A DNA stretch of 22,007 nucleotides, from the NCBI GenBank assembly GCA_029004355.1, contig JAQURV010000016.1, positions 1 to 22,007 of the forward strand. The letters run 5' to 3'. The stretch comes from Candidatus Omnitrophota bacterium (GTDB lineage Bacteria > Omnitrophota > Gorgyraeia > 2-01-FULL-45-10). The translations under genes were made by a program, and so were the position numbers. The notes below the pieces were generated by a model. That model worked only from the letters and a program-made list of their open reading frames with translations. It was not told where the DNA came from and searched no databases. Below are positions 5,386 through 17,814 of the stretch, piece after piece; within the stretch, counting starts at the first letter, position 1, and each line of letters begins with the position of its first letter.

Positions 5386-6444
5386 CTACTTACGATCTTT
5401 AATTTTCAAAGCGACATTGACGAGGATTATAAGGGCGGGGACTTCTATCAGGGGACCTATAACGGTCGCAAAAGCCTGGTTAGAGCTGATCCCGAAGATC
5501 GCGACCGCAACCGCAATAGCAAGCTCGAAATCGTTGCTGGCCGCCGTAAAAGAAGCGGCGGTCGTCTGTCCGTAACCGATCCCCATCTTTCGGGCGATGA
5601 AGAACGTGACAAACCACATAAAGAAGAAATATATGAGGAGCGGCACCGCGATCCTTAATACGTCGAAAGGCAGCTGTATGATGTATTGTCCTTTCAGGGA
5701 AAACATGACGACGATAGTAAAGAGAAGCGCGACGAGCGTTATGGGGCTTATCCTCGGGATAAAGACATCTTCAAACCACCTCTTCCCTTTTAGCTTAATC
5801 AGGCCGGCGCGGGTGAGTACCCCTCCGAGAAACGGTATCCCTAAGTAAAAAAATACGGTTTTGGCCGCCTCGACCATCGAAATGCTGATATTCAATCCCT
5901 TCGCAAGTCCCAGCCAGTTAAGGCCGACGGTAATAAATAGATAGATGTAGGCTGCGTAGAACAAGACCTGGAAAAGCGCGTTAAAAGCGACGAGTCCTAT
6001 GGCAAATTCCCTATCGCCTTCCGCAAGCTCGTTCCAGACGATAACCATCGCTATACATCTGGCCAGCCCTACCAAGATCACGCCGATCATATACTCCGGA
6101 TAACCCCTAAGGAAGACTATCGCAAGGATGAACATCACCAGCGGACCGACTATCCAGTTTTGCACGAGAGAAAGGATGAGAAGTTTCGGTTTATTGAATA
6201 CCTTCCCGATCTCCTCGTATTTTACTTTTGCAAGGGGCGGATACATCATAAGGATGAGACCTATGGCGATCGGGACCGAGGTCGTCCCGACCTGCATACC
6301 GGATATGATCTTAGTAACGCCGGGGACAAAATACCCCAAAGCTATCCCGGCTCCCATCGCAATAAATATAAGCGGGGTTAAAAGCTTGTCCAATAAGGAC
6401 AGTTCCCGCCTTAATTCCTTTGCCGCATGCTTGGTATATTGCAT
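5386..6444 (-). CDS. acr3: ACR3-family arsenite efflux permease
   Basis: ACR3 signatures are present: '[24 protein letters not shown]', '[18 protein letters not shown]' and the conserved Cys in '[11 protein letters not shown]'. It has about 10 TM segments and is about 350 aa. It lies 4 nt downstream of arsM. Confidence 0.85.
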
Positions 6445-6448
6445 CCGG

Positions 6449-7225
6449 CTATTCCTTTTTTGCCGATATCTTCACGCTGGCTATCGCGTCTTCGGTACAT
6501 TTAAATTCCTTGAACATAGCGTCTGTGGGATAACTCGTCTGACCGATCACTTTGACTTCTTTAAACCCGGCAAGCTTTATAAACCTCAGGTATTCATCTT
6601 TCTTGATCGCTCCGGCAAGACAACCCACGTATGCCTCGACCGATCCCTTTATTATGTCCGGCAGATCTTTGACCAGGACCAGATCGGAAACCATGAGCCG
6701 CCCTCCGGGTTTAAGCACCCTGAAAGCCTCTTTAAAAACCCTCTGTTTTTCAGGTGATAGATTAATGACACAGTTTGATATAATGACGTCGATCGAAGCA
6801 TCCTCGACGGGCAGTTTTTCGATCTCACCCAGCCTGAATTCCACATTCGTATACTTACCCTTCCCGGCATTCTTCCGGGCTTTTTCGATCATCTCCGGTG
6901 TCATATCAACGCCTATAACCCGGCCGGTCTTGCCGACTTTTGGAGAAGCAAGGAATGCGTCAAATCCGGCGCCGCTTCCCAGATCAAGCACGACATCGCC
7001 CTCCCTCAAAGATGCAATAGCAACCGGGTTGCCGCATCCAAGGCCCAGGTTGGCGCCTTCGGGAACGATATCAATGTCTGTGTCGCTATAACCGACTGTT
7101 TTACTTATATTTTTCACAGAGCTTGCGCTCCCGCAGCATGAATCCGTAAGGCAGCAAGAAACGTTCTGCGACGCTACTTTGGCGTATTTTTCTTTCACTA
7201 TCTTTTTTATCTTCCTGTCTTTCAT
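6449..7225 (-). CDS. arsM: Arsenite S-adenosylmethionine methyltransferase ArsM
   Basis: SAM motif I 'VLDLGSGAG'. N-terminal cysteine cluster '[11 protein letters not shown]'. Further Cys at 'GLGCGNP', 'SNCVINL' and 'YVGCLAG'. The true start is the internal ATG at 7225 ('MKDRKIKK') with RBS GGGGGTG. The listed 6449-7525 ORF is a 5' read-through. The start overlaps the ccdA stop as ATGA. Confidence 0.85.
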
Positions 7226-7896
7226 ATAAGCACCCCCAGATAAATAGCTATATAATACAGCCCTACTGCCATAAAGATAGCTCCGGTAATTTTTCTTGCG
7301 TATACCTCGAGTCTGGCCACCTTGCCGAACCAATGGTTTAAAGAGGTGATCCCCAATGCAATGCCCAGGGCAAAAATAAATACAGGCAGGCCAGTACCGA
7401 GCCCATATATGAAGGGCAGGCTCAACCCTACCTTGCTCTCTACCGCCAGCGGTATGAGGCTCCCGAAAAAGAGCGCGGCCGATATAGGGCAAAACGACAG
7501 CGCAAAGATAAAGCCTAGGATGCAAGCGCCGAATATGCCGGACCCGGCGAGCCTGGTTTGATGTCTTTCCTGGATTATCAGGCTCGGGATATTGAGTTTA
7601 AAAATATCCAGCAAAAAAAGGCCCGCGATTATCAGGATCGGACCCAATGCTTTGTTCATATACTTCTGCAGAAAGTTCGCCGCCAGGGGCACGCTTAATA
7701 GAGACTTCACGATAAGAAAACCCAATATAGCATACGCCAGCATCCTGCCTATGGTATACGAGATCCCCGATAAAAATACCGTCTTTGGATGGGTTATCTT
7801 CCTGGAGAGGAATGAGATCGCCGCGATATTCGTCGCGAGCGGGCACGGGCTTATTGAGGTAAGGACGCCGAGCCAGAGGGCCGTCAGGATGATCAT
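7222..7896 (-). CDS. ccdA: CcdA/DsbD-family transmembrane thiol-disulfide electron transporter
   Basis: Six predicted TM helices. The first redox Cys is in 'SISPCPL' and the second Cys in 'ALSFCPISAA', the typical CcdA arrangement. The RBS AAGGAG lies upstream of ATG 7896. Confidence 0.8.
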   Translation of the reverse strand: MIILTALWLGVLTSISPCPLATNIAAISFLSRKITHPKTVFLSGISYTIGRMLAYAILGFLIVKSLLSVPLAANFLQKYMNKALGPILIIAGLFLLDIFKLNIPSLIIQERHQTRLAGSGIFGACILGFIFALSFCPISAALFFGSLIPLAVESKVGLSLPFIYGLGTGLPVFIFALGIALGITSLNHWFGKVARLEVYARKITGAIFMAVGLYYIAIYLGVLI

Positions 7897-7899
7897 CTA

Positions 7900-8307
7900 T
7901 TAAAGCTCCTTGAGATACTTTTCTATCTCTGTTCTTATATATTGGTGAAAGGCGTCCTTGTTCCTCAGGTATTCCCATACCTTGGTGAGATTGTCGGATT
8001 TGATCTCCTTACCGCCCTTTACCAGAGAGAGTACGACGGATTTCGTATAAAGCTTGTACTCGTCCGTAAAATGTTCGTTACCTTTCGTTTCGACGTTGAC
8101 TACCTTAAAAACTACCGTGCCCGCATCCAATTCTTTCCGGAAATATTTCTCGACCGCCTCTTTCGTGTTCTGTTCGATCGTTTTGCAATTGACGCATCGG
8201 AAATTACCGTGAAAGTAATAGACTATCACGCTGTTTGCGGGAGCGGCTTCGCATACAAACGAAACGAATATGAGCGCCGCAACTAAAAGGAGCCGTGCGC
8301 GTTTCAT
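7900..8307 (-). CDS. Secreted thioredoxin/glutaredoxin-fold protein with a CVNC motif
   Basis: The true start is ATG 8307 ('MKRARLLLVAALIFVSFVCEA', signal peptide with AXA site) behind RBS GGGGGAG. The mature N-terminus 'VIVYYFHGNFRCVNCKTIEQNTKEAVEKY' matches the beta1-CxxC-alpha1 pattern of Grx/NrdH/ArsC-like folds. About 110 mature residues. Confidence 0.5.
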   Translation of the reverse strand: MKRARLLLVAALIFVSFVCEAAPANSVIVYYFHGNFRCVNCKTIEQNTKEAVEKYFRKELDAGTVVFKVVNVETKGNEHFTDEYKLYTKSVVLSLVKGGKEIKSDNLTKVWEYLRNKDAFHQYIRTEIEKYLKEL

Positions 8308-8543
8308 TTCTCCCCCGAGATCCATTTTTTTATTTCTTCCGCCTTGGGAATGCGGCCGTAGCATTTGATCTTGCCGTTAATGCGCAACCCCGGCGTCTGC
8401 ATAATACCCGCGTCCACTATCTTATTTATCTCTTTGACCTTTTCGACGTCCGCGACGATATTGAGTTCCGAAAGGACGCTCTTTACGCCCTTTTCAACCT
8501 CACCGCACCGATGGCATCCCGGCCCGAATATCTCTATCTTCAT
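8304..8543 (-). CDS. Small thioredoxin-family protein (TIGR00412-like redox-active disulfide protein 2), CHRC active site
   Basis: 'MKIEIFGPGCHRCGE...' followed by '...GIMQTPGLRINGKIKCYGRIPKAEEIKKWI' matches the ~78-aa TM0996/MTH895 family. The true start is ATG 8543 with RBS GGGGGGAGAG. Its stop overlaps the next start as ATGA. Confidence 0.75.
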   Translation of the reverse strand: MKIEIFGPGCHRCGEVEKGVKSVLSELNIVADVEKVKEINKIVDAGIMQTPGLRINGKIKCYGRIPKAEEIKKWISGEK

Positions 8544-8559: not shown

Positions 8560-9615
8560 TTAAAACCGCGGCACAAAAAACCAGAACACAAGACCTGCTA
8601 TAGTTCCGCATATCCACATAAGCGTCGCATATACCGCCGGAACGCGCGGCTTAACTATCTTGCATACCCCTAGTATCGAAGGCAGGCTTAAAGCCGGGCC
8701 CGTCAGAAGAAATGCCATCGCGGCGCCTGTTCCCATGCCGGACTCCAGGAACCCCCGGACGAGCGGTATCTCGACTAAGGTCGGGGTATACATGAATACG
8801 CCGATAGCCGAGGATAGCATGACCGGTAAAATGCCGTTGCCCAGGTATTTGATTATGACCGATGGGGGCAAAAATGCCTTTACGAGGCCCGCGCAGATAA
8901 CGCCCAAGAATATCAAAGGAAGCACCATCTTTACGAATTCCCACGAATACAATGCCATATTGACCAACCTCTTGCCAAAACCCTGATCTTCCTGCGATCC
9001 TCCATCGGCTTCCGTATCTATACGCACCGGTTCGGGTTCGGGAAGCCTGTTCTTAAAGATCCTGTCTGTGGTATATCCTACGAGGATCCCTGCCGTTACC
9101 GCAACCATAGCTCTTGCTACGGCAAACTTCCAGCCGAGAAGACCCAGAGTGAGCAGGATCGCTGCCGGGTTAAATGCGGGAGCGGCCAGAAGAAAGGTGA
9201 TCGCAGGACCAAGGCCTGCGCCTCTTTTATATAATCCCCCGAAGAGAGGAATGATGCTGCATGAGCACATCGAAAGGAGCGGCCCCCCGAGACCGGCCAC
9301 CGCGTACGGCGTAAAACCTCTGCCTGATCCCATAAGTTTGATGACTTTGTCTCTCGGCGCAAATTCCTGGAGCGCGCCGGCGGCTATAAAGGCCAGCAAA
9401 AGGCATAGCCATGAATGCTTTACATAGTCGATGATGGTAAAGACCAGGAACATGTGCACCGGTATCTTGTGCTCCTGCAAAAGTTGCGCGGTAATGACCT
9501 TGTTCTCGGCCATTGTGACCTTGACGCCCGTCCATGCCCCGGTCCATTCGTATACGATTATTACCGCGAAGATCAGGACCAGTATCGTTATCGCGAATAT
9601 CGTCCTTCTATCCAT
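8560..9615 (-). CDS. arsP: ArsP-like / DUF318 (YraQ) permease with a 'MCSCSIIP' motif
   Basis: About 8-10 TM helices with a two-repeat architecture. The Cys motif 'LSMCSCSIIPLF' resembles the ArsP 'TPFCSCSxxP' signature. It is paired with a TIGR00412-like thioredoxin immediately downstream. Confidence 0.7.
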   Translation of the reverse strand: MDRRTIFAITILVLIFAVIIVYEWTGAWTGVKVTMAENKVITAQLLQEHKIPVHMFLVFTIIDYVKHSWLCLLLAFIAAGALQEFAPRDKVIKLMGSGRGFTPYAVAGLGGPLLSMCSCSIIPLFGGLYKRGAGLGPAITFLLAAPAFNPAAILLTLGLLGWKFAVARAMVAVTAGILVGYTTDRIFKNRLPEPEPVRIDTEADGGSQEDQGFGKRLVNMALYSWEFVKMVLPLIFLGVICAGLVKAFLPPSVIIKYLGNGILPVMLSSAIGVFMYTPTLVEIPLVRGFLESGMGTGAAMAFLLTGPALSLPSILGVCKIVKPRVPAVYATLMWICGTIAGLVFWFFVPRF

Positions 9616-9617
9616 AA

Positions 9618-9920
9618 TTACCGTCTCTTCCTTGTTATTTTACAGCAGCCGCCCTCGATCCTTATAGCCTTGATATTGACCAGTCCGTCGGCGATCTTAT
9701 TGCGGGCGGATGATACGATCCTTGAGAATGTCGGTCTCGATATTTTGAGTCTTTTAGCCGCATCTATCTGTTTTAACCCGTCCAGATCGGCCAGCCTGAC
9801 GGCCTCAAATTCATCCAGGGTCAAACAGATACATTTAACCTTATTTAAGGGTTTGCAGATGGGCTTGAAACATCTCTCGCCCGGCAGGCATTTTATCCAT
9901 CTAGTCTTCTTCGGTCTCAT
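9618..9920 (-). CDS. DUF134 (UPF0251) predicted DNA-binding protein, Cys-rich; candidate operon regulator
   Basis: 'MRPKKTRWIKCLPGERCFKP...LTLDEFEAVRLADLDGLKQIDAAKRLKISRPTFSRIVSSARNKIADGLVNIKAIRIEGG' matches the DUF134 N-terminus plus a sigma-70 region-4-like HTH. It has seven Cys in 100 aa, including a vicinal 'GGCCK'. It is the first gene after the promoter/operator and sits 2 nt upstream of arsP. Confidence 0.65.
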   Translation of the reverse strand: MRPKKTRWIKCLPGERCFKPICKPLNKVKCICLTLDEFEAVRLADLDGLKQIDAAKRLKISRPTFSRIVSSARNKIADGLVNIKAIRIEGGCCKITRKRR

Positions 9921-9982
9921 CTATCCGCCATTATGAACATATGTTCATAATTAATTATACCACATCCCGGTGATTATGCAAA
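9921..9982 (-). promoter_or_regulatory. Sigma70-type promoter (TTGCAT-N16-TATAAT) with a perfect 20-bp palindromic operator over the +1 region
   Basis: The minus strand reads tTTGCATaatcaccgggatgtggTATAATtaaTTATGAACATATGTTCATAAtggcggatagATG. The -35 is at 9981-9976 and the -10 at 9959-9954. The palindrome TTATGAACATATGTTCATAA spans 9950-9931. The DUF134 ATG is at 9920. Confidence 0.55.
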
Positions 9983-11320
9983 TTATTTTTGGATCTTACG
10001 GAAGGCGTGCTTTATCTTTCTTTCCATTATGAAATCGTACCTAAGGTATAGACGCGTCCAGGCCGAGCGTTCCGTCGACATCCTGACGGCTTCGCGCAAA
10101 AACTCGTAGTCGACTCCTTTTATCTTAGGCAGGATGGGGGCGCGCGAGTAATCGCTGTGGGCCTTTATCAGAGAAAGGTCGTTCTTTATGCAGTAATCGT
10201 AAAGGTCGCTCCCCGGATGAGGCGTAAAGAACGCGGGGCTCATCCTGTACGGCTTTATCTTCCGTATCATCCTGACCGTATCCATGGCCTCTTCTCTTGT
10301 CTCCGTCGGGATCCCGAACATGTAGTTGGCCCACATCCTTATGCCGTGTTTCTTGCAGATCTTCGCGGCCCTGTAGTTCATCTCGGCGGTCGAGCCTTTT
10401 CTCAATAGTTTGAGTATGCGGTCGTTGCCGCTTTCGAAACCGATGAGGAACATGCCGAGGCCGGAGCTCTTCATGATCCTTATCATATCTTCGTTCTTGC
10501 AGATTATATCCGCCCTGCTCTGGCAAACGAACGGCGCCTTGAACCCGTTCTTTCTGTACTCTCTGCAGAATTTTTCGATCCAGCCCCTGTCTTCGGTAAG
10601 GCAGTCGTCGTGGAACATCATGCTTTGAAAATGATACCTGTCGCGGAGTTCGTTCAGTTCTTTGATTATATTGTCGACCGACCTGCGCCTTACCTTGTTC
10701 CCGAATATCTTGCGCTCGGCAGGCTGGCAGAAGCTGCAGTTGTAGATGCATCCCCTGCCCGCTATAAGCGTGACGAACGGCCTGTCCAGAAAGCTCTCTA
10801 TGGGCGATTCCTTGTAACGGAATAGTTCCCTGTCCGCGAAAGGAAGGCTGTTGAGGTCGGGGTGCTCGCCCGTTATCACCTTCTCCGCCGGGGCGCCCTT
10901 TTCGATATCCGCGAGCAGTTTTACAAAGCTCGTCTCCCCTTCGCCGATGATAATATGGTCGATGTAGTTATTCGATGTGAGTTCTTCCGGCATTATGCTG
11001 GGGTGCGGCCCGCCTATGACGACTTTTACGTTAGGCAGAGCTGCCTTGGCAGCCTTCGCCGCTTCAACGGCGTAGTCAAAATCGACGCTCATCATCGTTA
11101 TGGCTACGACGTCGGGAGAGAGTTCTTTCAGGTCCTTTTGAAAATCGTCCCACCCGGACAGCTCTCTTAGGTCTATGAGGTTCGTCAGGTGCCCGGCCCT
11201 TTTGGCGCAGGCGCTTAAATAGCAGAGTCCGTGGTGCAGCGAGCTAAAAGTTATAGGCTGCCTGGCCTTGGCAAAACCTGTTTCACCGACAGCCGGAAGC
11301 ACAAAGACTATCTTCAGCAT
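9983..11320 (-). CDS. Cobalamin-binding (class B) radical SAM enzyme
   Basis: The N-terminal Rossmann-like B12-binding region begins 'KIVFVLPAV...'. The radical SAM cluster motif is 'GRGCIYNCSFCQ' (CxxxCxxC), followed by 'GFESGNDRIL'. 445 aa. A TATAAT lies only 8-13 nt upstream of the ATG and there is no obvious SD. Confidence 0.85.
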   Translation of the reverse strand: MLKIVFVLPAVGETGFAKARQPITFSSLHHGLCYLSACAKRAGHLTNLIDLRELSGWDDFQKDLKELSPDVVAITMMSVDFDYAVEAAKAAKAALPNVKVVIGGPHPSIMPEELTSNNYIDHIIIGEGETSFVKLLADIEKGAPAEKVITGEHPDLNSLPFADRELFRYKESPIESFLDRPFVTLIAGRGCIYNCSFCQPAERKIFGNKVRRRSVDNIIKELNELRDRYHFQSMMFHDDCLTEDRGWIEKFCREYRKNGFKAPFVCQSRADIICKNEDMIRIMKSSGLGMFLIGFESGNDRILKLLRKGSTAEMNYRAAKICKKHGIRMWANYMFGIPTETREEAMDTVRMIRKIKPYRMSPAFFTPHPGSDLYDYCIKNDLSLIKAHSDYSRAPILPKIKGVDYEFLREAVRMSTERSAWTRLYLRYDFIMERKIKHAFRKIQK

Positions 11321-11346: not shown

Positions 11347-11862
11347 CTATCCATACAAAGTTTTTAATTCTTCTACAGTCGGGTGCTCGGAATAATATTC
11401 ACCCTGCGGCCCGATAAATCCGTTGCCCGACCTTCTCAGCGTGATCGGCGTATAGCTGCCTTTAGAATTGGGGATATTGATAATCACCGTTCCCGGAGCG
11501 GTTGCCGTAATGGGTTGAGCCGCTTCTTGCGCGGCATAAAAGGGTTGGGTCACTACGGGCGGCAGGACAACGACGTAGCCCTGGGAGCAGGGCCTGTAAT
11601 AGACGCCGTCATAATAGTAGTAGGGCACACCCCTGACCACAACACTGCTGTGCCTCGGCGGCAAAGCCTCGACAATGGCGCCGGCGGTGAGGGCGGCCAC
11701 GGCAACGTCGAACCCGAGCCAACCGTGCTTATACCACCTTCCGCCGCAATAATAGTGCTTTTTGGAGTTGACGGGGCCCCACGCAAACGCTTCCTGGGAG
11801 CATAATACCATCAGAGAACAAATCACTATAGCTAACCGATATTTTAAGATATGTTTTAACAT
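11347..11862 (-). CDS. Secreted Tyr-rich hypothetical protein
   Basis: Signal peptide 'MLKHILKYRLAIVICSLMVLCSQEAFA'. Unusual Tyr-rich segments 'KKHYYCGGRWYKHGW' and 'VPYYYYDGVYYRPCSQGYVVVLPP'. The RBS AGGAGG precedes ATG 11862. Confidence 0.5.
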   Translation of the reverse strand: MLKHILKYRLAIVICSLMVLCSQEAFAWGPVNSKKHYYCGGRWYKHGWLGFDVAVAALTAGAIVEALPPRHSSVVVRGVPYYYYDGVYYRPCSQGYVVVLPPVVTQPFYAAQEAAQPITATAPGTVIINIPNSKGSYTPITLRRSGNGFIGPQGEYYSEHPTVEELKTLYG

Positions 11863-11917
11863 TTTTTGCCTCCTTTCAGGATATTAGACAACAAGGCAGG
11901 CAAAAAAGTTCCGCCGG

Positions 11918-12520
11918 CTACATTTCTAATCTCAATTCCTTATTTTTATATTGCAGTTTCACGGAGGTGCTTGTAATAGCGACAACCTTCGCGCTATCCA
12001 CTTCGTCGCCCACGGCTACGGTCTTACCGTTAATAATAGCCTTAGAGCCCATGATGCCTGCCAGCTCGAATTCACTTGCCGGTTTGGGCTGAGCGGCGGC
12101 GGCTGTTTTGGCCTTAGGCGATTTATCGAGTACTGCTTTCATGATGCCGGCGAAGGTCGGCGCGTTCCTGTATCCTACGACAGTATCCACGGTCTTGCCG
12201 GCCGCGCTGAAGAATATGACGGTGGGATATCCCCGCAGTTTATATTTTGAGAACGCGTTCTTATCGACCCCGCAATCCACCTTAACACAGATGAATCTTT
12301 CGGCCAGTTTATCCACGGTCTCATCCACATAAACATCTTCGTCGAGTTTTTTACACCAGCCGCACCATTCCGTGTAGAAATCGGCCATGACGGGTTTGCC
12401 TTCGGCCTTTGCCTTTTTGAACGCCCCGTCAAGGTCTGTTTCCCAGGAGATCGCCCAGGCCTCCGGACCCGAAGTCAGCACAAACGCGAATAATAGAAAC
12501 GCTGTTATGGTCTTTTTCAT
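11918..12520 (-). CDS. Secreted thioredoxin (CGWC active site)
   Basis: Signal peptide 'MKKTITAFLLFAFVLTSGPEAWA'. Canonical Trx motif 'FYTEWCGWCKKLD', with 'YPTVIFF' downstream. A C-terminal extension of about 70 aa follows. The start abuts the BASS gene stop as TAGATG, and the RBS AGGAAGG lies inside the upstream gene. Confidence 0.8.
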   Translation of the reverse strand: MKKTITAFLLFAFVLTSGPEAWAISWETDLDGAFKKAKAEGKPVMADFYTEWCGWCKKLDEDVYVDETVDKLAERFICVKVDCGVDKNAFSKYKLRGYPTVIFFSAAGKTVDTVVGYRNAPTFAGIMKAVLDKSPKAKTAAAAQPKPASEFELAGIMGSKAIINGKTVAVGDEVDSAKVVAITSTSVKLQYKNKELRLEM

Positions 12521-13471
12521 CTATGCGCCTTCCTGTTTTTCCGCCGGGTCAGGCATCCGGTTCCAGATGCTCGCCAATACGGCCGCGCTTATTATACACC
12601 ATGTGGCGAAGAGCGCATTGGGTATCGCGGCTTCCGCCGAGGCATATTTTATCGCAAGGACCGCGCCGAGGCCTGCGTTCTGCATGCCCACGCCTATGGC
12701 AAGCGTACGGCGCTGTTTCCGGTTGAATTTAAATAATATGCCCGCGCCGTAACCTAATACCAGCCCGGAGATATTGAGCAGGACCACCGAGATAAAGACA
12801 ATGACCGTGATGCCTCCAAGCGCTCCTCTGTTGAGCGCGACGACCAGGCCGCAGATGAAGGCTATGAATATCGTGGAGAACGCCGGGAATACGGGACGCA
12901 TCTTCTCGACGGGCCGTTTGAAATAATGCCGCGCGGTAAGGCCAAGGAAGAGCGGCACGATCACCATGAGCATGATGCTCTGCATCATGGGCCAGAACTG
13001 GATCGGCACGTATTCGTGGGCAAAGAAATACATGAGGGCCGGGGTAACGACCGGCGATATGAGCGTAGTACCCGTAGTGAGCGCGACCGACAGCGCGACA
13101 TCCGCCTCGGCTATGTATGACATAACGCCTGCCGCCATCGCGTCGGGGACGGCCCCCGCGAGGATGAGCCCGAAGGCAAGCGCCGGCGGGAGATCCAGGA
13201 GCCGCACTATGATAACCGCCGCGAGGGGCATGATGGTGAACTGCGCCAGTATTCCCAGGATAACGAGCCTCGGTTTTTTAAAGATGGGCTCGAAGTCTTT
13301 CACCGAAAGGAGCGCGCCTATGCCGAACATCGTTGCCGCGAAGAACCAGTCTATAAAAGGCTTGAGCGGGATAAAGGCTTGTGGGAAAAAGTAAGCCGCA
13401 GCCACGGCGATGACCACCCAGAATACGAGATAGTCCGTGAAATATTCGGCTATCCTGTTAATAAGATGCAT
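12521..13471 (-). CDS. Bile acid:sodium symporter (BASS/SBF) family transporter, in the BART superfamily like ACR3
   Basis: About 9-10 TM helices. Family-typical 'AIGVGMQNAGLGAVLA' and 'LILAGAVPDAMAAGVMS' segments. 316 aa. Confidence 0.75.
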   Translation of the reverse strand: MHLINRIAEYFTDYLVFWVVIAVAAAYFFPQAFIPLKPFIDWFFAATMFGIGALLSVKDFEPIFKKPRLVILGILAQFTIMPLAAVIIVRLLDLPPALAFGLILAGAVPDAMAAGVMSYIAEADVALSVALTTGTTLISPVVTPALMYFFAHEYVPIQFWPMMQSIMLMVIVPLFLGLTARHYFKRPVEKMRPVFPAFSTIFIAFICGLVVALNRGALGGITVIVFISVVLLNISGLVLGYGAGILFKFNRKQRRTLAIGVGMQNAGLGAVLAIKYASAEAAIPNALFATWCIISAAVLASIWNRMPDPAEKQEGA

Positions 13472-14016: not shown

Positions 14017-14541
14017 TTATTCCAGATCGTTCAGGATCTTTTTAATGACCTGAAATTCTTCTTTCGGGATAACGCCCGACCTGACGTAACGGACGGTCCC
14101 CGCCTTATCGATGATCAGGAAATTAGCCTCATCGACTGCCATGCCGTAGCTCTTTTCCATCGCGCCGTCCCAATCTCCGTATATGATAATGCCTTCTTTT
14201 CTGGAATTCTCGCGCAAACTCCGCTGCCATATGACCGGCATAAAAACCGAGCAGCGGATAACGGCTATCCTCATCACCTCTTTTTGTACCGCCGGAGATG
14301 ATCCCGCATAAAATGCATTCAGCTCCTCTTTAAGGGCCCTGTTCTTTTCTTTTGTATCTTTCGTTTCATAGAATATCGTGGCTACTTTATCTTTAAGCAT
14401 ATCGGATGTAAGGGTCTCGTTGCTGCCGGATACCACCCGAAAATACGGCGCTTTCTCCCCGTTGGTTATGCCGATTGCTGGGGCAGCCGATAAAACGATA
14501 AAGCATACGATTATTATAAATACGTTAAATAGTTTTGCCAA
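14017..14541 (-). CDS. Periplasmic thioredoxin-fold (redoxin/YtfJ-like) protein lacking a CxxC motif
   Basis: Signal-peptide-like 'AKLFNVFIIIVCFIVLSAAPAIG'. Redoxin-fold pattern ('KVATIFYETKDTK...', 'FLIIDKAGTVRYV'). The ORF contains no ATG start. The TTG at 14541 has an AAGGG RBS, whereas the TTG at 14586 has none. The boundary is uncertain by 45 nt. Confidence 0.45.
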   Translation of the reverse strand: MAKLFNVFIIIVCFIVLSAAPAIGITNGEKAPYFRVVSGSNETLTSDMLKDKVATIFYETKDTKEKNRALKEELNAFYAGSSPAVQKEVMRIAVIRCSVFMPVIWQRSLRENSRKEGIIIYGDWDGAMEKSYGMAVDEANFLIIDKAGTVRYVRSGVIPKEEFQVIKKILNDLE

Positions 14542-15091
14542 GGTTATAGGCCCTTTCGAGTAATTTAGCGTGTTTCTTAGCGTCAAAATCTGCGGCGCCT
14601 GTCGCCGTAAGCGTTTTTATCCTGACGTGCATATAATTGAAAAATGCCTTCATGGCCCGGACAGAACCCGTAACGATACCTAATAGATGGGAAAACGGAA
14701 AGGGCGCGTGACAGCTTGTTATCAGGATGACCTTACCCGGTTTTTTGGAAGGATAGACAGGGCCGAAGCGGAACTCTTTGAACATAGAATAGCCTCTGTC
14801 AAAAAATCTTTTGGCGCAGGAGGTCACATTGCTAAAATAGGTAGGCGAGCTAAAAACTACTATGTCGGCGTCCCGGATCTTGTCGGCAACGGCATTAAAA
14901 TCGTCTTCTATGATGCATCGCCCCGTTCGCTGGCAGGCGGAACAACCCCTGCATGGCTTTATTGTCAGATCCATAAAATAGATCTTCTCGGTAGAGGCGC
15001 CTCTGTCACGCAACCCATCGAGGGCAGATTCCGTTAATCTGTCGGTTACCTGCCCTTTTCTCGGTCCTGTTACGATCCCGATCGCTTTCAT
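14525..15091 (-). CDS. Iron-sulfur flavoprotein (Isf) / NAD(P)H-dependent FMN reductase family
   Basis: Flavodoxin-like 'MKAIGIVTGPRKGQVTD'. Compact cluster motif 'CRGCSACQRTGRC' (C-x2-C-x2-C-x5-C) typical of Isf. 'VFSSPTYFSNV' FMN-binding segment. ATG 15091 is preferred over GTG 15127, which would read through an AT-rich promoter-like tract. Confidence 0.7.
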   Translation of the reverse strand: MKAIGIVTGPRKGQVTDRLTESALDGLRDRGASTEKIYFMDLTIKPCRGCSACQRTGRCIIEDDFNAVADKIRDADIVVFSSPTYFSNVTSCAKRFFDRGYSMFKEFRFGPVYPSKKPGKVILITSCHAPFPFSHLLGIVTGSVRAMKAFFNYMHVRIKTLTATGAADFDAKKHAKLLERAYNLGKTI

Positions 15092-15260
15092 CTTTAAAAT
15101 AATTATAGCATATAAAAGAAAACCCACCTACCTTTTCCACTTCTCGTATATGCGGTAGATGGGCCAAACCCTACGAGGCTTATGGGCTACTGTCTAAATC
15201 CTCTCTCCCTTAGCCTCATATATAGTATAGCACATTTTTCGGTAAAATACAATGGTTCGG
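15092..15260 (-). promoter_or_regulatory. Intergenic region with two extended -10 promoters (TTGTAT-N16-TGcTATACT distal; TGcTATAAT 10 nt from the ATG)
   Basis: The minus strand reads ...cattgTTGTATtttaccgaaaaatgTGcTATACTatat... with the -10 at 15229-15224. It also reads ...tataTGcTATAATtattttaaagATG with the -10 at 15107-15102. No SD precedes the ATG, so the proximal promoter would give a near-leaderless mRNA. Confidence 0.4.
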
Positions 15261-16974: not shown

Positions 16975-17784
16975 TCAGAACGGGCTCTTGAATACCCCGC
17001 TCACGGCGTCTTTAGCTTTTGAGGCTGCTTCCGCGGCCTTCTGGGTCGTTTCGATGGCTGTCTTTGTCGCCTTTTGCGCCGTCTCGGAGGCCTGCGCGGT
17101 CATCTTCTGGGCGCTGGCAAGTGTCCCGGAAACCGAACCGCTCAAACCTTTGAGATCGAAATTGGCAAGGCCCGCTATGGAAGTGTTCATAAGGGCTTTT
17201 ACGACTATCAGGCTGACCAAAGTGTAGGGATTCGTTATGTTTGTATATTGCTCGTCTATATTGACATTGAATTCCTTTACGCTCGGTTCGCCGCCCCTGG
17301 AATAGTCCTTATAAACCACTTTGCCTATCTTTAAACGCAGCTTATCTATCTGTATCTCCGGGACTTTTCCGCCGGCCTTCTCCTGCGTCTTGCCGCCCGA
17401 TTTCTGGGCCTGCACGACCTTAAGCGAGTCGAGGTTCAGCTTGCCTTTTTCGTTTTTGACGACGGTGAATTCCCGCATATTTATGCGCGTTTCCGTCAAG
17501 TGGACCTTTCCTTTGAAGATGGCAGGCAGGTCATAATCTACATATATCTCCGGCATGTTGAGCATGTTCTTATCTTTGAAACCTGCGGGATTTAGTATGC
17601 GCAGGTTCCTTATGTCTACGAGGGTATTCAGCATCCCTATCCTGAATCCTCCGATCTTTAATTTCAGGCCGGTCACTATCTGCGTCCCGGATTCTACCGC
17701 TACCTTGATAACCAGGTCTTTGGCTATGCCCAAAATAAAGATAACTACCAATATCCCTACCGCTATAACCATCCACTTCTTCAT
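16975..17784 (-). CDS. Membrane-anchored hypothetical protein with a low-complexity C-terminal tail
   Basis: The true start is ATG 17784 ('MKKWMVIAVGILVVIFILGIA', N-terminal TM anchor) behind RBS GGGAGGTGG. The GTG at 17814 would read through the RBS. The C-terminal tail is rich in Ala/Thr/Gln/Lys. Confidence 0.5.
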   Translation of the reverse strand: MKKWMVIAVGILVVIFILGIAKDLVIKVAVESGTQIVTGLKLKIGGFRIGMLNTLVDIRNLRILNPAGFKDKNMLNMPEIYVDYDLPAIFKGKVHLTETRINMREFTVVKNEKGKLNLDSLKVVQAQKSGGKTQEKAGGKVPEIQIDKLRLKIGKVVYKDYSRGGEPSVKEFNVNIDEQYTNITNPYTLVSLIVVKALMNTSIAGLANFDLKGLSGSVSGTLASAQKMTAQASETAQKATKTAIETTQKAAEAASKAKDAVSGVFKSPF

Positions 17785-17814
17785 ATGCCACCTCCCGCTT
17801 ATCTTTATCCGCAC

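Follow-up and report, generated by a model that had tools for sequence, protein, structure and literature searches.

How is an arsenic operon controlled where no gene for an ArsR repressor lies nearby? The question is raised by a 22,007-nt stretch of a Candidatus Omnitrophota genome (contig JAQURV010000016.1, positions 1 to 22,007; hereafter the window), in which a DUF134 (UPF0251) protein of 100 amino acids (aa) is encoded on the reverse strand at 9618-9920, at the head of a set of arsenic (ars) genes. Prokaryotic ars operons have been described with repressors of the ArsR family, novelty residing in the position of the arsenic-binding cysteines (PMC11868830, 2025). A preliminary description of the window had proposed the DUF134 protein as an autoregulated sensor-repressor in place of ArsR. 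Here we compare the locus with its relatives and conclude from their sequences that the protein very probably represents a novel kind of arsenic-operon repressor, distinct from ArsR. It belongs to what we call the GGCC clade of DUF134, whose members, with a palindromic operator of their own, head ars operons in hundreds of genomes of uncultured Omnitrophota. We are highly confident, on comparative grounds, that the clade has this regulatory role and that its operator is correctly assigned. The full mechanism, an autorepressor that would sense arsenicals directly through its cysteines, is argued largely by analogy, and we favor it with moderate confidence.

Linkage of the GGCC clade to arsenic genes

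The DUF134 gene and the six genes downstream of it, all on one strand and separated by gaps of 0-16 nt or joined by ATGA overlaps, make up what is, on its sequence, a seven-gene arsenic operon, duf134-arsP-arsE-arsF-arsG-arsM-acr3. The list of open reading frames (ORFs) and the match to Pfam PF02001 agree with the preliminary description in placing a 100-aa DUF134 protein ahead of arsP, arsM and acr3; arsE, arsF and arsG had gone unmentioned there.

The arrangement is not peculiar to the window. A scan of one genome per species of the Genome Taxonomy Database with a motif of the clade (KxI[RK][IV][EK]xGCC) gave 295 relatives. The best 80 of these loci all carry the label Omnitrophota or come from metagenome-assembled genomes (MAGs) coarsely labelled 'uncultured Planctomycetia/Planctomycetales', and the gene directly after the regulator in them is an ArsP_1 permease in 77 and Acr3 in 3. 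ArsP_1 is usually followed in these 80 by ArsE, ArsF and ArsG, often with ArsM and Acr3 in addition. On the Pfam-annotated contigs the upstream neighbor varies (histidine kinase, LTXXQ protein, thiamine-monophosphate-kinase-like AIRS protein, SBF transporter, MacB-type ABC pump or PPDK), whereas the downstream ars picture is constant. The most distant clade members served as seeds for a metagenome scan, which provided a built-in control: it returned 54 clade loci (45-63% identical to the representative P0125) and, along with them, 26 loci of generic DUF134 proteins (38-44%).

When all sources were pooled, duplicates removed and at least 1 kb of downstream DNA required, 114 unique clade loci remained. 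An automatic tblastn tally finds ArsP next to the regulator in 105 of them and Acr3 in 4 (109/114). Three others (L097, L111 and L139) were missed solely because the Acr3 gene overlaps the stop codon of the regulator; tblastn had hit it earlier. In L169, by Pfam gene calls, ArsM comes first. In L125 (2120-3505) a Pfam scan identifies a MIP aquaporin and then an LMWPc protein, whose best NCBIfam match is a thioredoxin-type arsenate reductase (129.5 bits, under the cutoff of 174.3); L125 was considered as an exception to the ars link and rejected as one, given the aquaporin and the ArsC-like reductase found there. Arsenic genes are then next in 114 of 114 clade loci, by way of three non-homologous routes of As(III) export: ArsP_1, Acr3, and the aquaporin with the ArsC-like reductase of L125. 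They are next in none of the 15 generic DUF134 loci with comparable downstream DNA. The sole apparent generic exception, L127, is actually a clade gene (926-1228) with an in-frame internal stop codon, which marks it as a pseudogene or else reflects an error of sequencing. Applied to the uncorrected automatic counts (109, 5, 1, 15), Fisher's test gives p of about 1e-14.

The clade regulator is thus found at ars operons far beyond chance, which existing annotation does not explain, and the comparison shows its link to arsenic genes to be exclusive. Neighborhood with ars genes, which the preliminary description had proposed to tabulate for DUF134 as a whole, is a property of the GGCC clade only; a link of DUF134 in general was rejected, with 0/15 generic loci before ars genes and many before NifX-like genes.

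Is an ArsR present as well? The search was made with tblastn and four ArsR/SmtB sequences, a set with which weak homologues could be missed. With these four queries no ArsR-like gene appeared in the 22-kb window or in 169 of 171 related loci, and an ArsR as the real regulator was rejected on this ground; to this extent the protein does stand in place of ArsR, as had been suggested. In the remaining two loci, L079 and L142, both types of regulator may coexist in one genome. In L079 the DUF134 start and the ArsR-like gene downstream of it are ~3.8 kb apart, and another Acr3-like gene follows at about +7.8 kb. The literature on ArsEFG and on Omnitrophota ars genes yielded no description of a DUF134-type regulator.

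The DUF134 protein is itself no ArsR in disguise. It has no match to the winged-helix models HTH_5 or HTH_20 at E <=0.01, and no ArsR/SmtB chain occurs among its PDB profile matches (E <=1) or is named in its top 50 fold matches. What it shares with ArsR is a functional resemblance only, namely its place as first gene of the ars operon in 114/114 loci and an operator that overlaps the promoter.

The operator and its recognition

The preliminary description had pointed to a palindrome at 9931-9950 ahead of the regulator gene (TTATGAACATATGTTCATAA). It is indeed there, and remains perfect when widened to 22 bp (ATTATGAACATATGTTCATAAT, 9930-9951). The 18-bp core, TATGAACATATGTTCATA at 9932-9949, has the half-sites TGAAC/GTTCA and occurs once in the window, against 0.01 occurrences expected by chance. 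Ahead of the palindrome by 4 nt, on the reverse strand, is a promoter-like site of the sigma-70 type (9954-9982) that agrees with the consensus at 10 of 12 positions: a -35 of TTTGCA (9982-9977), a 17-nt spacer and a TG-extended -10 of TATAAT (9959-9954). The operator begins 2-4 nt past the -10 and so spans the expected start of transcription.

The same layout recurs throughout the clade. Where 60 nt or more of upstream DNA is available (131 unique clade loci), the 18-mer or its TATGCACATATGTGCATA variant, with up to 3 mismatches allowed, is present in 125 and ends 5-23 nt ahead of the start codon. The six exceptions have a palindrome that differs at its center or, in L001, a site 191 nt upstream. 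(L125, the aquaporin locus, has the TATGCACATATGTGCATA variant.) In 76 of 134 loci a TTGACA-like -35 starts exactly 31 nt before the palindrome, which therefore starts ~2 nt past the -10 and covers the start site. The promoter of the clade is near consensus, TTGACA-17-TAnAAT. Of 218 operator matches in 1.6 Mb of related loci, all but two fall in the 250 nt ahead of a DUF134 gene, and the two exceptions precede generic DUF134 genes by 292 and 548 nt. Comparative evidence thus shows both the operator and its repressor-type geometry, and the assignment of the palindrome as the conserved operator of the clade protein is strongly supported by sequence.

The geometry bears on the sign of control. 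Were the protein an activator that binds the palindrome, or a basal autoregulator independent of any ligand, induction by arsenic would fall to an unlinked regulator such as ArsR. The fold is akin to sigma-70 region 4 and to activators of the LuxR/GerE type, two loci (L079 and L142) have an ArsR-like gene within 4 kb, and the check for ArsR covered no more than the window and the loci. However, a near-consensus promoter needs no activator, and operators over the start site (in the clade) or over the spacer and -10 (in generic DUF134 genes) are both at repressor positions. Moreover, no ArsR-like gene accompanies the regulator in 169 of 171 loci, and the invariant CC motif specific to the clade would be left without a role. 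We consider such an activator or basal autoregulator improbable, and infer that the clade protein represses.

If the protein binds the palindrome, changes in one should be accompanied by changes in the other. Over 158 unique loci this is the case, and the pairing of protein and palindrome made in the preliminary description is borne out to the extent that covariation can do so. The operator has G/C at positions 4/15 where the recognition helix has R67 (138 loci), and T/A where it has N67 or S67 (6/6 loci). At positions 5-6/13-14, AA/TT accompanies S61-R62-P63-F65-S66 in 90 loci, CA/TG accompanies H-[RQ]-S-[VI]-S in 16, and [AG]G/C[CT] accompanies S-R-Q-F-G in 14.

A solved structure gives these pairings a physical basis. 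By profile and by fold, the closest homologue is the DNA-binding domain of Bacillus subtilis DeoR (7bhy, 8r7y; 40% identity over 40 aa, root-mean-square deviation 0.6 A), whose recognition helix, ISRPTVSRLL, is nearly identical to the ISRPTFSRIV of the window protein. The DeoR domain binds the palindrome TTGAACAAAATTCAA with TTGAACA half-sites, R39 touching G4 and R34 touching T12 (PMC11229326). R39 aligns with R67 of the window regulator and R34 with R62, and the clade half-site, TATGAACA, holds the TGAACA of the DeoR operator. The replacement of R67 by N or S is accompanied by the predicted change of G to T in the operator.

The likeness ends with the DNA-binding domain. The helix-turn-helix (HTH) of the DeoR subclass and the TGAA-type inverted half-sites are present, but the SorC sugar-phosphate effector domain (~250 aa), through which DeoR belongs to the SorC family, is absent. 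The regulator is not a SorC-family member, because it has just 100 aa and no further domain. DeoR is a tetramer and its regulon is deoxyribonucleoside catabolism; the DUF134 regulator has only an arm and a tail that bear cysteines, and the effector differs.

On three Omnitrophota contigs a clade gene occurs together with a generic paralogue. Each of the two genes has its own matching operator, and from their sequences they look like orthogonal regulator-operator pairs. The paralogues lie within about 5 kb of each other (L054 12741-13208, L061 2504-2971, L086 11246-11563). The arsenic-clade gene has TATGAACATATGTTCATA together with R67, the generic gene TATT[AG]GCATATGC[CT]AATA together with N67. 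L054 and L061 have Zn-ribbon tails.

The palindrome could instead be the site of another protein, or act as an RNA hairpin in the 5' untranslated region, the DUF134 protein having some other role in the operon. When transcribed, it can fold as a 9-bp hairpin (-8.5 kcal/mol, z-score -3.4), and symmetric changes in both arms are expected of an RNA stem as well. An RNA stem or a foreign protein does not account for the covariation of operator and helix, including R67N/S with G to T, or for the contacts of the DeoR domain with the same TGAACA bases through equivalent arginines (PMC11229326). Furthermore, the generic palindrome, lying over the -10 and spacer, is mostly untranscribed, and within the 1.6 Mb of loci operator sites are found only upstream of DUF134 genes. 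An RNA element was rejected given the modest hairpin and an Rfam scan of the window that matched no family; the alternative as a whole has, in our judgment, very little chance of being right.

What kind of protein, then, would read the operator? The regulator matches Pfam PF02001 (DUF134) with E 9.4e-21 and 74.7 bits (cutoff 27), residues 2-94 corresponding to positions 6-96 of the 98 in the profile; its score against the NCBIfam equivalog PRK04217 (NF003257) is 63.6 bits, under the cutoff of 115. A word-indexed search returned 2426 relatives, the best 120 of which are 81-93% identical, and every named one among these is a Candidatus Omnitrophota MAG. When 1.84 billion cluster representatives were searched exhaustively with HMMER, 3458 family members emerged, and the 150 best of these plus the query (151 sequences) served as the family-wide alignment. 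That DUF134 has no assigned function, as the preliminary description stated, agrees with our search of the literature for DUF134, UPF0251, COG1342 and PF02001, which gave incidental mentions only and no functional study.

The protein consists of a basic N-terminal arm (residues 1-30), a three-helix HTH core (31-88) and a C-terminal tail. In an AlphaFold2 model built from a 150-sequence alignment, the mean confidence score (pLDDT) in blocks of 10 residues is at least 90 for residues 31-80 and 83 for 81-90, and confidence is low solely at residues 1-30 and 91-100. The model has a strand at 31-33, helices at 35-46, 51-57 and 62-81, the last being the recognition helix with S61-R62-P63-T64-F65-S66-R67 at its start, and a strand at 86-88. 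The two strands probably pair with one another, since no other strands are predicted, and the arm and the tail would then leave the core side by side. The arm has a basic motif found throughout the family, M-R-P-K-K-x-R-W, of which R2, P3, K5 and R7 are invariant in the clade; plausibly, it contacts DNA.

The DeoR domain and sigma-70 region 4 head the fold and PDB matches, and GerE-type chains are also among the top 50 by fold. A sigma-70 region-4-like HTH, as first described, is recognizable from these fold matches; the sequence matches to HTH_23, HTH_28 and Sigma70_r4_2 are all below threshold. With region 4 of sigma-70 and of extracytoplasmic function (ECF) sigma factors the core shares its three-helix topology (target-normalised TM-score 0.6-0.7 over 42-51 residues). 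The regulator is not a sigma factor, because region 2 is absent; it recognizes a palindrome and not a -35 hexamer, and its scores fall short of both sigma models (Sigma70_r4_2, 16.3 vs. 25.7; TIGR02937, 22.3 vs. 42.9).

Cysteines and the sensing of arsenicals

The seven cysteines listed in the preliminary description, at 11, 17, 22, 30, 32, 92 and 93, the last two in a C-terminal GGCCK, are exact. They are not equally conserved. Among the 120 closest homologues plus the query, C17, C92 and C93 are kept in all 121, C22 in 119 and C11 in 113, whereas C32 is kept in 55/121 and C30 in 28/121. Mapping of conserved cysteines therefore retains five of those first listed, and C30 and C32, for want of conservation, were ruled out as members of the sensor. 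Across an alignment of 150 sequences, 47-93% identical, C92 never varies, and C93, C11, C17 and C22 are each at least 90% conserved. All 136 unique clade proteins keep the CC pair and at least one arm cysteine (C11, C17 or C22), which at the level of sequence is the cysteine set required of an ArsR-like sensor.

Elsewhere in the family these positions are occupied differently. In the family-wide alignment 127 of 151 sequences have Gly at position 22 (within an FKPxG motif). Tyr and Phe predominate at position 17, Asn and Pro are the commonest residues at position 92, and Val, Tyr or Phe occupies position 93; cysteines occur at these positions only in the nearest representatives (P0121, P0122, P0125, P0127, P0146 and some fragments). 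As read from the alignment, the conserved cysteines are clade-specific substitutions of otherwise conserved non-Cys residues, a pattern that would be expected of an acquired sensory site and not of a structural feature common to the family. In the AlphaFold2 model all of them lie within the two flexible ends, the arm and the tail.

Two loci are worth recording beside these counts. L090 (2799-3086) has Y-C instead of C-C, yet lies ahead of ArsP. In L134 (1360-1629) the clade gene stops short of the CC motif, and no ars gene was detected within 2 kb.

Vicinal cysteines and thiol triads, which the preliminary description took to be the As(III) chemistry of the ArsR family, have direct precedent there (PMC11868830). 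Sites of three cysteines for As(III) arose at different places in ArsR proteins: C32/C34/C37 in R773 ArsR, C95/C96/C102 in AfArsR, and C15/C16 plus C55 of the other subunit in CgArsR; ArArsR was probed at C107 and C108, and SpArsR, with two cysteines, responds to methyl-As(III) (MAs(III)) only (PMC11868830). The DUF134 regulator resembles ArsR/SmtB proteins in its size (~100 aa), its place as first gene of the ars operon that it controls, its palindromic promoter operator and its cysteine sets with a vicinal pair near a terminus. The predicted logic would also be alike, a trivalent arsenical bound by thiolates freeing the repressor. The fold, however, is unrelated, being a three-helix HTH with neither winged helix nor dimerisation helices, and the proposed sensor lies in a disordered arm and tail.

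These features suggest the following mechanism. Two copies of the sigma-4/DeoR-like HTH would bind the inverted half-sites of TATGAACATATGTTCATA, R67 reading the G of TATG and residues 61, 63, 65 and 66 reading the next two bases; we infer that the protein binds as a dimer. Bound right after the -10 and over the start site, the regulator would block RNA polymerase. The sensor would be made of both flexible ends, the tail pair C92-C93 and one or more of the arm thiols (C11, C17, C22). Trivalent arsenicals could bridge tail and arm thiols within a subunit or across the dimer, As(III) needing three thiolates and methyl- or aryl-As(III) two. The bridging would order arm and tail and either detach the arm from the DNA or deform the dimer, so that the operator is freed and efflux, methylation and the regulator itself are induced. 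Of the proposal of an autoregulated sensor-repressor, the autorepressor part is strongly supported by the operator over the start site, the regulator's own promoter and the exclusive ars link; direct binding of arsenicals by the cysteines is the conjectural part. The clade may prefer organoarsenicals, because the CC pair is invariant, the third cysteine is variable and the core partners of the regulator are ArsP and ArsEFG.

Several observations weigh against this mechanism. Four or five conserved cysteines suffice for a Zn(Cys)4 or an iron-sulfur (Fe-S) site. The third ligand is not fixed, the arm pattern at 11/17/22 being CCC in 117 proteins, -CC in 9, CC- in 6, C-- in 3 and C-C in 1. Arm cysteines are not unique to the arsenic clade, because generic DUF134 proteins carry them too (at position 6 in 52/151 and at position 11 in 28/151). 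ArsR-like genes lie within 4 kb in L079 (11797-12057, forward strand) and L142 (6218-6415, reverse strand), and other parts of these genomes may encode an unlinked ArsR. Not every PF03773 permease transports arsenic, and the ArsP of the window scores under every NCBIfam equivalog cutoff. Finally, clade members are known solely from uncultured MAGs and metagenomes.

The first of these points leads to an alternative in which the protein would still bind the palindrome and repress its own ars operon, but the cysteines would serve as a structural Zn or Fe-S site or as a thiol-disulfide redox switch. Induction would then answer to thiol or redox stress, or to a different ligand, instead of to arsenicals bound directly. 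The company kept by the family lends it some weight: generic DUF134 proteins have Cys-rich arms and CxxC...CxxC tails, and their genes precede NifX-like and NUBPL/Mrp genes of Fe-S type, which may hint at a family that handles metal cofactors, and the operon itself has the thioredoxin-like ArsE and the DsbD-like ArsG. Arsenic, however, is the sole factor common to the 114 loci, with their three non-homologous exporters plus ArsM or ArsC. The thiol-redox genes are not universal, ArsE being absent from loci of the L125, Acr3-only and L169 types. The replacement of non-Cys residues by the CC pair is specific to the arsenic clade, and vicinal cysteines are typical ligands of As(III) and MAs(III) in ArsR proteins (PMC11868830). 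A variable number of arm cysteines suits a two- or three-coordinate soft-metalloid site better than a fixed Cys4. We therefore regard the structural or redox role as unlikely, though as the least unlikely of the alternatives, and keep to arsenical sensing through the cysteines.

At its widest, the proposal is that the GGCC clade is the first prokaryotic arsenic sensor outside ArsR/SmtB, working by a cysteine 'clasp' in which a trivalent arsenical joins the vicinal cysteines of the tail to a cysteine of the DNA-contacting arm, and that DUF134/UPF0251 proteins are arm-and-tail autorepressors that sense ligands and share the operator TATGnnCATATGnnCATA. We would give this wider proposal even odds. 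If it is true, thiolate-based arsenic sensing evolved on a second, structurally unrelated scaffold, across a whole phylum. The DUF134/UPF0251 family, which extends from archaea to the plasmids of Enterobacteriaceae and is usually paired with NifX-like genes, would gain its first function, its first operator and DNA-contact residues that can be tested. The control of arsenic methylation and efflux in uncultured Omnitrophota would be accounted for, and annotation improved. A 100-aa regulator with an operator of 18-22 bp would also be a candidate small part for biosensors of arsenicals and organoarsenicals.

The operon, its surroundings and generic DUF134 proteins

All genes of the operon are on the reverse strand. 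The ArsP_1-family permease (351 aa, 8560-9615) starts 2 nt past the stop codon of the regulator and is matched by the Pfam ArsP_1 model only (PF03773, E 4e-61, 207 bits). The other five products exceed curated NCBIfam cutoffs, ArsP being the exception. The ArsE-type thioredoxin-like protein has 79 aa from the Met at 8543 (8304-8543; TIGR00412 MTH895/ArsE, 89 bits, cutoff 62), a start picked by the Shine-Dalgarno sequence and the family alignment. The ArsF-family protein overlaps it by ATGA and has 135 aa from the Met at 8307 (7900-8307; NF040494, 113 bits, cutoff 60). It is followed by an ArsG-family permease of 224 aa, DsbD_2-like (7222-7896; NF040495 equivalog, 272 bits, cutoff 200; Pfam DsbD_2). 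ArsM, the arsenite S-adenosylmethionine (SAM) methyltransferase, overlaps arsG by ATGA and has 258 aa from the Met at 7225 (6449-7225; PRK11873, 356 bits, cutoff 263). The last gene encodes the arsenite efflux transporter Acr3, of 352 aa (5386-6444; TIGR00832 equivalog, 443.8 bits, cutoff 282.8).

That the regulator gene is the first of the operon, as originally stated, holds by its promoter; the operon is not isolated, for a same-strand gene for a B12-binding radical SAM protein lies directly upstream without a predicted terminator. It is for this reason that the claim rests on the promoter. The radical SAM gene (445 aa, 9983-11320, reverse strand) ends 1 nt ahead of the -35 of the ars promoter and comes closest in NCBIfam to radical SAM proteins of the HpnJ, BchE and methyltransferase types, each under cutoff; its match to arsinothricin ArsL is weak (46 bits). 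Radical SAM genes with 24-28% identity to it occur within ~5.5 kb in L026, L061, L103 and L136.

Farther upstream, synteny with related Omnitrophota contigs is partial (window 11347-13471 and 16975-17814, reverse strand; L004 5731-9302; L007 8146-9920). The genes that partly correspond encode an SBF/BASS transporter (PanS-like, under cutoff), a DUF6515 protein and a DUF748 protein; extra in the window is a thioredoxin-domain protein with a signal-peptide-like sequence (11918-12520). An ORF of the FMN_red/flavodoxin-like type at 14525-15127 (reverse strand) was considered as ArsH and rejected, having no ArsH match in NCBIfam.

Two dissimilar types of ArsP_1 follow the regulator. The 351-aa type of the window recurs with 66-89% identity in ten loci (L007-L011, L015, L019, L020, L113 and L136); the other has 390-434 aa in the annotated loci and is only about 25-45% identical. 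The regulator is far better conserved across genome loci (73-93% identical) than the transporter next to it. Distant clade members, about 55-60% identical and with the same ars linkage, occur in MAGs labelled Pseudomonadota (L169) and Elusimicrobia (L170); these could reflect horizontal transfer of the module, or mis-binning or mislabelling.

Generic DUF134 proteins belong to the same Pfam family as the clade and share the R-P-x-x-x-R of the arm, the FxP motif, the HTH and the autoregulatory layout. They differ in having FKPxG and GG-x-[VYF] at the positions of the clade cysteines, and often Zn-ribbon-like CxxC tails or a fused NifX-like domain. Their genes precede those for NifB/NifX-like and NUBPL/Mrp proteins. 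Among ten downstream genes scanned from eight generic loci, six encode Nitro_FeMo-Co (NifB/NifX-like) proteins of about 120 aa and one a NUBPL/Mrp P-loop ATPase fused to a Nitro_FeMo-Co domain. DUF134-NifX loci are found within L143-L168 (e.g., L150 8501-8863, L153 1316-1678 and L161 3399-3782) and in L172 (5995-6751). The generic palindrome, TAT[GT][AG]GCATATGC[CT][CA]ATA, lies across the gene's own promoter spacer and -10, whereas that of the clade lies after the -10; its 3' end is the -10 box itself, so it is mostly upstream of the expected start of transcription.

The same DUF134-NifX pairing occurs on an annotated plasmid of Citrobacter freundii, where a similar palindrome precedes the DUF134 gene. 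In the plasmid collection, cultured hosts have generic DUF134 only, of less than 60% identity. Plasmid-borne members of this kind offer a genetically tractable way into the family; generic DUF134 is present in 187 plasmid records, mostly from Klebsiella, Citrobacter and Escherichia.

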